A DNA stretch of 64,000 bases from a virus, in the IMG/VR virus record IMGVR_UViG_3300026088_000013, one strand, 5' to 3'. The translations under genes were made by a program, and so were the position numbers. Below, one piece after another: positions 19,403 through 61,325 of the stretch. The notes under the pieces were generated by a model. The model saw nothing but the letters and a program-made list of their open reading frames with translations, searched no databases and was not told the origin of the DNA. How positions within the stretch are numbered: the stretch's first letter is position 1; every line of letters begins with the position of its first letter.

Positions 19403-19441
19403 ATATTTATACTGGTTTAATATGCAATGGTTCTTTTCTTG

Positions 19442-19473
19442 ACAGGGGTAATGGGAACTACCCCTGTTTTTTT
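19442..19473 (+). terminator. Hairpin with U-tract on the + (antisense) strand
   Basis: acaggggta/tacccctgt 9 bp stem then tttttt. Confidence 0.5.
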
Positions 19474-39687: not shown

Positions 39688-39720
39688 TTAAAATTAGGAG
39701 GCACCAATATTGATGCCCCC
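39688..39720 (-). terminator. Probable leaky terminator after capsid gene
   Basis: gggggcatc/ggtgcctcc stem then taatttt on - strand. Confidence 0.5.
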
Positions 39721-39745
39721 TTTTATCTTACTACCCTATCAAAAC

Positions 39746-42377: not shown

Positions 42378-42385
42378 CAAATTTA
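42378..42385 (-). promoter_or_regulatory. -7 element for scaffold/capsid operon
   Basis: TAAATTTG on - strand, no TTTG -33 box at the expected distance. Confidence 0.55.
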
Positions 42386-55343: not shown

Positions 55344-55545
55344 TATTCTTTAGGTTTAGTGGGTATTGTCCAATGGGTTACAACGCCTTCAATTACGTTC
55401 CCTTCGCTATCGTGAAATATAAATTCCTTTCCCGATGCGTTATGCTTTATTTCAGCGAGTATGCCTTCTGCCCACGAAGGTATTTCAAACCACAGAACCA
55501 ATGCTTGCTGAAAAGGGGGTTCTTTACCGGGTAGTTTATTCCATT

Positions 55546-55549
<4 letters not shown>
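55343..55549 (-). CDS. Hypothetical protein, DUF551-like pattern
   Basis: MKWNKL..K.PP...VTHW. Confidence 0.6.
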
Positions 55550-56347
<798 letters not shown>

Positions 56348-56370
56348 TTATTGGGTTTTATTGTTTGGGG

Positions 56371-56583
56371 TTATGAAATTGTCCACGACTTTTTTTCAGC
56401 AACGTTTCCGGGGGATTGAGCGCCGCCATACCAATTATCCCTAAGTCTTGTTGCAGTAGTGAATGCGGTCAGGGAATCTTGGATATATTTGCAAAGAATA
56501 AAGTCGGGAGTATTGCTATCGTTTTCTTTGTTGTGTTTGTTGATTAAATTTTCCAACTCACGCTCAAAACTTAATTCTGGCAT
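56371..56583 (-). CDS. Phage hypothetical protein
   Basis: LENLIN.H.KEN.SNTPDFIL...RDNWY; start moved to ATG 56583. Confidence 0.75.
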   Translation of the reverse strand: MPELSFERELENLINKHNKENDSNTPDFILCKYIQDSLTAFTTATRLRDNWYGGAQSPGNVAEKKSWTIS

Positions 56584-56596
56584 ATTAGGAGTTTTG

Positions 56597-56723
56597 TTCT
56601 TGCAGCGGCCCCGTTGTAGTAGTCCAGACACCATGAAGGAGAGAGGGCATCGGCACCGCTGCAAGAAAATATATAATTTATGTTTTGTTTTTATTTTTCA
56701 TGGTTCATATTCGACTACTACAA
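56597..56723 (-). ncRNA. Candidate structured RNA/leader
   Basis: Perfect 12 bp inverted repeat 56597-56608/56656-56667 and perfect 11 bp inverted repeat 56614-56624/56713-56723. Confidence 0.55.
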
Positions 56724-56752
56724 GGCTAAGATAAGCACTATTCCGGATTAAC

Positions 56753-56760
56753 CAAATTTA
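56753..56760 (-). promoter_or_regulatory. -7 element upstream of structured leader
   Basis: TAAATTTG on - strand. Confidence 0.5.
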
Positions 56761-56763
56761 TTT

Positions 56764-57282
56764 TTACGAATATTCGATGTTTTCGCCCCAACAAAGAATC
56801 TGGCCACGAAATTCTTTGGGTTTATCAAAGTTAGGCATAAGCCAATACATCATATCCTCCACCGAAAGTCCGTCGTTTCTGGCAAGCTCTTCCACTTCGT
56901 GATCTTCCATCCAATATTTTCCGTTGATTGAGTATACCCCGTTTAAATCCATTTCAAAATTCCAAATCTTTTTAATCTGAATAGGTGGTGCAAACTGTAT
57001 TTGTTTACTTGTATATGGTTTTCCAGACCACACACGCGGACTAAACCAATCGCCAACTTTCCATCGGTTTCCTCTACGAATGGTATGATATTTAGGCCAT
57101 ATGGTATCTGTTTTTAATTGGCTAACAGCTAGATCACATTCAGGAAGTTTTCTATAATATTCATCTTCCATCTCAATTCCTTCTACGGCAATATATTCCC
57201 ATATCTTTTCAACGAAATAAGTTGGCTGTCCCTTGCGTGGATGTTTTGCAGGAAAATTTCTACTAAAAGTTATCACCTTCAT
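56764..57282 (-). CDS. ASCH/PUA-like domain protein
   Basis: FVEKI...KYHTIRRG.RWKVGD...RVWSGKPY. Confidence 0.55.
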   Translation of the reverse strand: MKVITFSRNFPAKHPRKGQPTYFVEKIWEYIAVEGIEMEDEYYRKLPECDLAVSQLKTDTIWPKYHTIRRGNRWKVGDWFSPRVWSGKPYTSKQIQFAPPIQIKKIWNFEMDLNGVYSINGKYWMEDHEVEELARNDGLSVEDMMYWLMPNFDKPKEFRGQILCWGENIEYS

Positions 57283-57458
57283 AACTTAGGAGATTTAATA
57301 GTTATATAAAAGAATAAAAGGTAAATATGAAAGAAGCCTTTACCCAAATGGAATCCCAATAGAGCCCCTTCATATCCTTCTATTTCTATCCCTAGTATCT
57401 CAAAAGTAAAATGGTTCCATTGATTCCATTCTAACTGTATGGGGGTTATTCTTTTCAT
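57279..57458 (-). CDS. Hypothetical protein (59 aa, not in track)
   Basis: MKRITPIQLEWN...SPKL; TAATG and ATGA overlaps with both neighbours. Confidence 0.65.
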   Translation of the reverse strand: MKRITPIQLEWNQWNHFTFEILGIEIEGYEGALLGFHLGKGFFHIYLLFFYITIKSPKL

Positions 57459-57970
57459 TAAAGTTTAATTGGGTTAAAAATTACCAGCATAGAAGGGAAT
57501 GGAGCCGGATTCTTTTTACCTATTTTACCGTATAGTGTATTTAGTTTGCCGTTTATAATTTCCTGTTCCCAAACCCATTGCCAATAAGCATCGGAACCGA
57601 AGATAAGACGCCCCTTTAAAAATTCAACCTCAACATTCTTTTTACGATAAATGTAGTTGTGAAAAAACAATGTATCTGTACGTGCGGGCATTAAGCCAAC
57701 TATCATAGCATTCCCATCTGCGGCTTCTGACCATGCTTTTTTAACCCACGTTCCAAGAGGTCTTCCATAGGGGCTGTTCATCCAGCATCTTCCCGACCAC
57801 TTTTGTTCCAACCCGTTATCTGATTCAGTAAAATACTTTTCGCACTTAGCACTTTCTATGGAAGCAGCTACATCTAAAGTAAATCCGAATCTTGCATTTT
57901 GCTTATCAAAGAATTCTTGCGGAGTATCCCATGCCTGATTTTTCGATGAAAACATTAGTTGGTTGTTCAT
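57458..57970 (-). CDS. Phage N6-adenine DNA methyltransferase
   Basis: WDTPQEFFD, FTLDVAAS, WMNSPYG, PARTDT, FLKGRL.F, APFPS. Confidence 0.92.
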   Translation of the reverse strand: MNNQLMFSSKNQAWDTPQEFFDKQNARFGFTLDVAASIESAKCEKYFTESDNGLEQKWSGRCWMNSPYGRPLGTWVKKAWSEAADGNAMIVGLMPARTDTLFFHNYIYRKKNVEVEFLKGRLIFGSDAYWQWVWEQEIINGKLNTLYGKIGKKNPAPFPSMLVIFNPIKL

Positions 57971-57979
57971 TCTTTATGT

Positions 57980-58258
57980 TTAATGGGTGGATCTTCTTAA
58001 TACTCTACTAATTGTGTTTTCACTTACGCCGTACTTTTTTCCTAGTGTTGCCATAGCATACCCTCTATCATATTGTTCTTTTATTCTTTGAATTTGTTTA
58101 TCACTTAAATTAGAAGGCATAAAACCCGGAGTGTTCATTAACGACTGCCTTACATCAAATATTTCATACGGGGTAGTAAGATTGTATTGGACTATTTTTG
58201 TTAATTCTAATAGTTCCTCATTCTTAATTACAAAGCCGTCTAGATGGAGTTCGTACAT
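57980..58258 (-). CDS. Protein with C-terminal HTH
   Basis: LSDKQIQRIK...LGKKYGVSENTISRVL. Confidence 0.75.
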   Translation of the reverse strand: MYELHLDGFVIKNEELLELTKIVQYNLTTPYEIFDVRQSLMNTPGFMPSNLSDKQIQRIKEQYDRGYAMATLGKKYGVSENTISRVLRRSTH

Positions 58259-61105: not shown

Positions 61106-61123
61106 TCTAATTGGTTATTGGGC

Positions 61124-61146
61124 AAAAAAACGCCCCTGAAAAGGGC
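61124..61146 (-). terminator. Terminator in leader of replication operon
   Basis: gccctt-ttc-aggggc then g ttttttt on - strand. Confidence 0.55.
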
Positions 61147-61325
61147 TGTGTCGGCAGCGCACTTTAAAGAGGCGAGAAGGTTTTTACTTTCTTCTAAAAG
61201 GAAACCTCATATCAGATCGTCCGACAACGAAAGTGTTATGAGGTTGTAGTAAATCATATACACTAAACTATGAATGATCCTTATCATGGCAAAATCTATT
61301 TTAAATACTTGCCTGTAATCAAGAA

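Follow-up and report, generated by a model that had tools for sequence, protein, structure and literature searches.

The window, a 64-kb stretch analysed as part of a 74-kb IMG/VR phage record, carries on its minus strand a leader of about 176 nt, counted from an invariant TTTGG to the start codon of the downstream gene. Upstream of this leader lies a replication module which encodes DnaB, Dam and an HTH protein, and downstream follow the genes of a small protein and of an exoribonuclease. Read on the minus strand, the locus features the following parts:

56752-56760, minus strand: promoter-like -7 box, TAAATTTG(G), with TAAATTTG itself at 56760-56753
56724-56729, minus strand: TTAGCC motif adjoining box1, conserved in the alignments
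56713-56723, minus strand: box1, UUGUAGUAGUC (TTGTAGTAGTC in DNA), the 5' strand of the pseudoknot helix
56691-56708, minus strand: mini-ORF MNHEK*, present in the window and unconserved among relatives
56678-56701, minus strand: short upstream ORF (uORF) MKNKNKT*, with an ATG invariant in 8/8 leaders
56597-56667, minus strand: GC-rich 71-nt hairpin with 12 perfect pairs, a 5-pair extension and a 37-nt loop
56631-56647, minus strand: pyrimidine-rich loop motif, conserved in the alignments at the corresponding place of the 7 homologues, with the core CUCUCCUUC, then A/G/U, then UGG
56614-56624, minus strand: box2, GACUACUACAA (GACTACTACAA in DNA), the 3' strand of the pseudoknot helix, within the hairpin loop
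56584-56596, minus strand: A-rich unstructured spacer linking the hairpin to the start codon of P0001, 13 nt in the window
56371-56583, minus strand: first downstream gene, P0001, 70 aa, true start at ATG 56583
55763-56347, minus strand: second downstream gene, an Rv2179c-like DEDD 3'-5' exoribonuclease (PF16473, 7e-13; phrog_2259)

A previous sequence-only reading of this DNA had described the -7 box at 56753, box1 at 56713-56723, the ATG at 56708 opening MNHEK*, a 71-nt domain closed by 12 perfect pairs and holding the exact complement of box1 in its loop, as well as a conserved small protein (P0001) and a 3'-5' exoribonuclease encoded downstream, all of which we could confirm.

Box1 (56723-56713) and box2 (56624-56614) are perfectly complementary, and the order of the strands, i.e., box1, 5' arm, box2 and 3' arm, corresponds to a long-range pseudoknot of the H type, both helices of which covary. 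The 12-nt hairpin arms (56667-56656 and 56608-56597) are extendable to arms of 20 nt with 85% complementarity. For the 71-nt domain a fold of -32.2 kcal/mol was predicted (z = -4.24), with none of 200 shuffles being as good, and the box1:box2 duplex of the window reaches -14.3 kcal/mol. The pyrimidine-rich loop motif remained unpaired in every predicted fold. It contains the hexamer CUCCUU, a hexamer also present in the anti-Shine-Dalgarno tail of 16S rRNA. A purine tract complementary to the motif was not found in the leader.

A helix of this length could also reflect chance complementarity beside an ordinary hairpin, as about 2.7 perfect inverted repeats of at least 11 nt within 120 nt are expected per 64-kb window. 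Here, five were counted, two of which fall in this single leader, and at most 0.06% of the shuffles produced a Watson-Crick match of 11 bp between the upstream segment (84 nt) and the loop (37 nt). The recurrence of this helix at one and the same position, in seven sequences across eight diverged leaders, already refutes this explanation, to which we assign practically no likelihood.

The hairpin is also distinct from an intrinsic terminator, since in 8/8 copies the stem is followed by the A-rich spacer and not by a U tract; likewise, a terminator scan of positions 55500-58000 gave no terminator-like site. Ordinary short GC-rich terminator-like hairpins are located on the minus strand at 39690-39730, 19440-19470 and 61120-61150, between late genes or before the replication operon (contexts which apply to the three spots as a set), and look unlike the 71-nt domain.

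For the comparative analysis, eight distinct leaders were available, namely those of the window and of L094, L130, L092, L149, L153, L152 and L159, all of them from metagenomic phage contigs of one clade, which comprises uncultivated Bacteroidota phages of about 70-78 kb. Identical duplicates were found in L091, matching the leader of the window, and in L095. In the protein database, the best homologue of P0003, the product of the gene upstream of the leader, was 67% identical and no close relative of the window phage was present; the contig of this homologue, L094, features a homologous leader in the same place with a different gene behind it. L130 and L092 were obtained by a profile search together with a single pattern scan of metagenomes, and L149, L153, L152 and L159 by using the methyltransferase encoded about 2 kb downstream as an anchor. 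In L092, which encodes the closest homologue of P0001, no leader is located directly upstream of this homologue, the leader being found one gene further up.

Synteny in IMG/VR via P0003 and the exoribonuclease led to 63 loci, none of them with a leader, and scans of IMG/VR with three exact patterns retrieved only chance palindromes or coding matches. A pattern scan of the genome collection yielded only chance matches in unrelated high-GC bacteria, and an IMG/VR scan with the Acb2-like protein returned the L149 record only. Among cultured phages, blastn gave an exonuclease match only and tblastn with the methyltransferase no match. In Flavobacterium phages, e.g., FCV-1, the gap upstream of the Acb2-like genes measures only 56 nt, and no cultured phage of the phage collection carries the leader. 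Within a genome the leader is single-copy, as seen in G000 and in the L149 record with one copy each, and no other box1-like site with up to one mismatch was detected in the window or in the 74-kb genome.

Some further sites were recorded during these searches. A repeat pair in L068 was considered as a leader copy and rejected as an unrelated AT-rich hairpin. At the end of an IMG/VR contig (L023:7770-7855, minus strand) an 86-nt hairpin was found, with a 20-21-bp stem and an ACUAC-containing loop; it has CUUGCAGCGGUG in common with the stem of the window and, with the DNA upstream of it missing, represents a hairpin-only candidate. Within the window, 'Leader C' before the replication operon contains at 61244-61252 (minus strand) the sequence TACTACAAC, i.e., 9 nt of box2 plus flank, with which box1 could also pair; one such 9-mer per 64 kb is about the level of chance.

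Across the leaders, the distances between all parts vary within narrow ranges:

TTTGG to box1: 28-32 nt in 8 copies
box1 to hairpin: 42-47 nt in 8 copies
invariant ATG to hairpin: 32-34 nt in 8 copies
box1 run to invariant ATG: 8-13 nt
hairpin length: 67-75 nt in 8 copies
end of box2 to 3' arm of the hairpin: 0-3 nt in 8 copies
hairpin to main start codon (A-rich spacer): 13-17 nt in 8 copies

As box2 adjoins the 3' arm, the box1:box2 helix and the hairpin stem would be able to stack on each other.

A box1:box2 helix of 11-13 bp, counting Watson-Crick and G.U pairs, is formed in 8/8 leaders from seven different sequences (box examples UUGUAGUAGUC, UGUUGACAUUCU, GUUGUAGUUCAA, UGUAGGCGUUCAA, GUUGUUCAAUU, UCGUCAAAGUUU and UGCAAAACAUA), a common box core being present only in the window and L094. 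The energies of these duplexes are similar across the copies, ranging from -11.5 to -17.6 kcal/mol. In an alignment-free test, the longest run of Watson-Crick and G.U pairs joining the loop to the upstream segment was always located at the same position in the eight leaders, with p <= 0.016 per copy. In a MAFFT alignment of five copies (A6), 92.7% of the cells were paired, a value reached by 0/500 shuffles and set against at most 57% in slid controls. In the alignment of seven sequences for the pseudoknot helix, 91% of the cells were paired and 9/13 pairs were compensatory, i.e., changed on both sides; for the hairpin, five diverse sequences gave 95% paired cells and 17/17 compensatory pairs. 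The two latter alignments were fitted by covariance models and are thus biased towards structure, a bias of which the alignment-free run test is free. MAFFT combined with RNAalifold on all eight leaders misaligned the diverged stems and recovered the hairpin only partly; the stems of L159 and L149, for example, have almost no sequence in common with that of the window. The covariance-model alignments and the alignment-free test were consequently used in its place. RNAalifold on the 5' segment indicated no conserved local structure or partner competing for box1.

Further hints on the selected molecule come from the cells deviating from Watson-Crick pairing, which in both helices, read on the sense strand, comprise 14 G.U versus a single A.C. 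Allowing G.U pairs lengthened the helix in four copies; allowing A.C added at most three pairs. This asymmetry argues for folds of the sense-strand RNA and against DNA repeats or an antisense transcript. A coding explanation was rejected as well, with stops in all six frames in all copies. The proposal that the loop pairs with an upstream site of its own leader is therefore substantiated by compensatory change in eight leaders and by the G.U excess on the sense strand, and the covariation anticipated among relatives was found in both helices. From the comparison of these sequences we conclude that both helices are kept by compensation, as sense-strand RNA with fixed spacing.

The same data bear on the idea of an element acting at the DNA level, for instance as the target of a recombinase, as an inversion site, as an origin of replication or as a binding site for a protein. 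Its location in the replication module would be in line with such a function, as would the different genes flanking it in each phage, reminiscent of a recombination hot spot. However, the preference for G.U over A.C is that expected of RNA, and the sequences of the arms drift freely while their pairing is kept, so that we consider a DNA-level element very unlikely.

Among the known RNA elements, the parallel drawn by the sequence-only reading was that to the P1 c4 and P4 CI RNAs (Rfam C4). These are stem-closed domains of about 70 nt, encoded in phage leaders, whose loops are complementary to their own transcript near the ribosome-binding region. By analogy, the 71-nt domain could be excised as a small RNA, the box2 of which would pair with box1 in cis or in trans, thereby blocking translation or causing termination. 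Several features fit an immunity RNA of this type, including the closed domain with a loop complementary to its own transcript, the selection on this pairing and the position of the target just upstream of a conserved AUG. Moreover, the closing stem of 12 bp has the length of the stack of acceptor stem and T-stem which is recognised by RNase P.

The assignment to this class, however, was not supported. At gathering score, no family of Rfam 15, C4 included, matched the window or the seven homologous loci; a search for C4 at E <= 10 on positions 56500-56850 gave no C4 match either, the only matches being to miRNA and snoRNA families at chance level, and ARAGORN reported no tRNA or tmRNA. The leader contains one box instead of two and a single target located upstream, with no second downstream site in the window or in the 74-kb genome. 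An RCCA-like tail is absent 3' of the stem, there is no lysogeny context around the leader, RNase P processing and an immunity function are evident only for the C4 RNAs, and the hosts are Bacteroidota instead of enterobacteria. Furthermore, a diffusible antisense RNA would not require box1, hairpin and box2 to be spaced as strictly as they are. It is this fixed spacing of every part which favours an intramolecular pseudoknot. The data can be explained without an excised antisense RNA, which appears less likely than a pseudoknot acting in cis and which we regard as improbable.

The position of box1 relative to a start codon was likewise part of the sequence-only reading, which had placed it at the start of a mini-ORF. 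The ATG of MNHEK is indeed present in the window but unconserved among the relatives; instead, the ATG at 56701, seven bases downstream of it, is invariant in 8/8 leaders, and box1 covers roughly positions -12 to -24 relative to this AUG. The uORF starting there comprises 7-9 codons and stops 1-10 nt before the hairpin in 6/8 copies, with the peptides MKNKNKT, MQIQTKHKL, MQIKNNT, MQNQTNN, MKIKQKHKS and MSLQKQNIV. The longer uORFs of L152 and L159, with 38 and 24 codons, respectively, extend into the hairpin. Since neither the peptide nor the frame is conserved, any function would have to lie in initiation or translation as such; short ORFs occur frequently where a sequence is rich in A.

With regard to transcription, TTTGG is invariant in 8/8 leaders, and TAnnTTTG, the -7 box of Bacteroidota primary-sigma promoters, is exact in four of them, including that of the window, the others deviating by one mismatch. 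The TAAATTTGG of the leader also heads the capsid operon at 42385. For the window copy alone, inspection by eye showed no -33 TTTG at the expected spacing of about 19-21 nt upstream. With the -7 box exact in only half of the copies and no such -33 element seen in the window, the leader may be read through from upstream. In the window, L094, L092 and L149 the stop codon of the upstream gene is located at or just before the start of the leader, and in L130 about 30 nt inside it, which makes read-through transcripts likely. On the antisense (plus) strand of the window copy alone, a 10/12 match to a sigma-70 promoter (TCGGCA, 16-nt spacer, TATAAT) lies at 56650-56677 in the 5' half of the hairpin; to our knowledge, promoters of this sigma-70 type (TCGGCA/TATAAT style) are not used in Bacteroidota.

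Transcripts of this kind could be subject to processing, and the hairpin might represent an RNase III-type site or a structure protecting the mRNA, with the pseudoknot only shaping the fold. A stem of 17-18 pairs between two cistrons would suit such a role, as would the conserved length of the hairpin and the read-through suggested by the upstream stop positions; in the early mRNA of T7, RNase III sites are located between cistrons. An element for RNA processing or stability would nevertheless leave unexplained why the AUG is invariant and keeps its distance, why the loop motif is conserved and why the strength of the helix between loop and upstream segment is constant, and we hold it to be unlikely.

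On balance, we tend towards a pseudoknotted leader acting in cis, which probably controls how a variable early cassette is translated or how stable its mRNA is. In this model, the box1:box2 helix would stack on the hairpin stem and thereby close the region 12-24 nt upstream of the uORF AUG. As this region would have to be open for ribosome loading in the Shine-Dalgarno-poor Bacteroidota, formation of the pseudoknot would gate translation of the uORF. Ribosomes ending at the foot of the hairpin could in turn promote or limit initiation beyond it, or alter the stability of the mRNA. The net role would be the control in cis of an early, exchangeable cassette of accessory and counter-defence genes.

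A more detailed version, which we consider quite unlikely in its full extent, would be a translation device in which ribosomes load at the upstream AUG, end at the hairpin foot and are passed over the stem to the start codon located 13-17 nt behind it, either by a bacterial form of shunting or by termination-reinitiation. Here, box1:box2 would serve as a gate, and the CUCUCCUUC loop with its CUCCUU could act as a decoy or be bound by a protein of the ribosome or an RNA-binding protein of the host. If this were true, any gene behind the leader, including Acb2/Tad1-like sponges, would receive early regulated translation.

Leaders of related logic are described for other systems. In the repZ/repA leaders of IncI-alpha and IncB plasmids, which encode the leader peptide repY/repB, a short leader ORF similarly ends at the foot of a stem-loop, the loop of which pairs with a distant site by a ribosome-binding region; for the main gene to be translated, both the leader ORF and the long-range pseudoknot are required. 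The phage leader has the reversed polarity, as the loop of a downstream hairpin pairs upstream of the start of the leader ORF; furthermore, it lacks an evident antisense RNA gene, its main start codon is not buried and the sequences are unrelated. The leaders of rpsO and the alpha operon of E. coli and of T4 gene 32 also feature a 5' pseudoknot near the initiation region, and the single-stranded motif could, as in these cases, bind a protein. In contrast to them, the enclosed start codon belongs to the uORF and not to the regulated gene, and autoregulation by the downstream product is unlikely since the downstream gene is variable. The PeSL cassettes of T4-type phages are likewise conserved modules of promoter and hairpin which border hypervariable accessory genes and possibly act as points of gene swapping, but they are simple hairpins occurring many times per genome, whereas the leader is single-copy and pseudoknotted. 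Finally, the ribosome shunt of CaMV and other plant pararetroviruses combines a short ORF, which stops only a few nucleotides in front of a long, stable hairpin, with a main start just beyond; given the eukaryotic scanning mechanism and the two of eight leaders in which the uORF reads into the hairpin, this is an analogy only.

In the literature searched, no description of such a motif was found. The leader is a new, unnamed RNA family of a known general kind, i.e., a pseudoknotted regulatory leader, and unusual in its polarity, leading from a downstream loop to a site upstream of the leader ORF, and in its host group. The mRNAs of Bacteroidota and their phages are largely devoid of Shine-Dalgarno pairing, and little is known about translation control in these organisms. 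With two helices, one AUG and one loop motif, the leader offers a defined test object for leader-mediated control in Bacteroidota.

The leader also sits exactly where early accessory genes are swapped between phages, as the genes on both of its sides differ from phage to phage. Behind the leader of the window, P0001 features a conserved ENDSNTPDFIL motif and matched only unnamed viral clusters in the protein atlas. Gene callers report it as 87 aa from ATG 56634 inside the hairpin; the additional 17 residues (56581-56634, minus strand) are unconserved and represent translated RNA structure, an artefact recurring in a 95-aa call in L092 and an 87-aa ORF in L130. In three phages, the first gene encodes an Acb2/Tad1 hairpin-domain protein scoring above the family cut-off of PF24729 (L094:3200-3442, L149:2805-3053 and L153:3900-4136), and members of the Acb2/Tad1 family are sponges for defence signalling nucleotides. 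In the other copies the first gene encodes unknown proteins, with a WDGH-domain protein second in L130. Genes for DUF3850, PKD-like and methyltransferase proteins follow further downstream and are variously common to the phages, the methyltransferase being present in 6/8 loci and a chaperonin in several. Thus, the leader heads an exchangeable slot of accessory genes, in which counter-defence genes are probably located, and as an RNA family for databases it could serve as a marker of such variable, probably counter-defence, gene slots in this clade.

The DEDD exoribonuclease in the slot of the window might degrade signalling nucleotides instead of sponging them. On a related phage contig, an IS605 OrfB / TnpB (Cas12f-like) gene (L096:4342-5451) is located a few genes downstream of the P0003 homologue.
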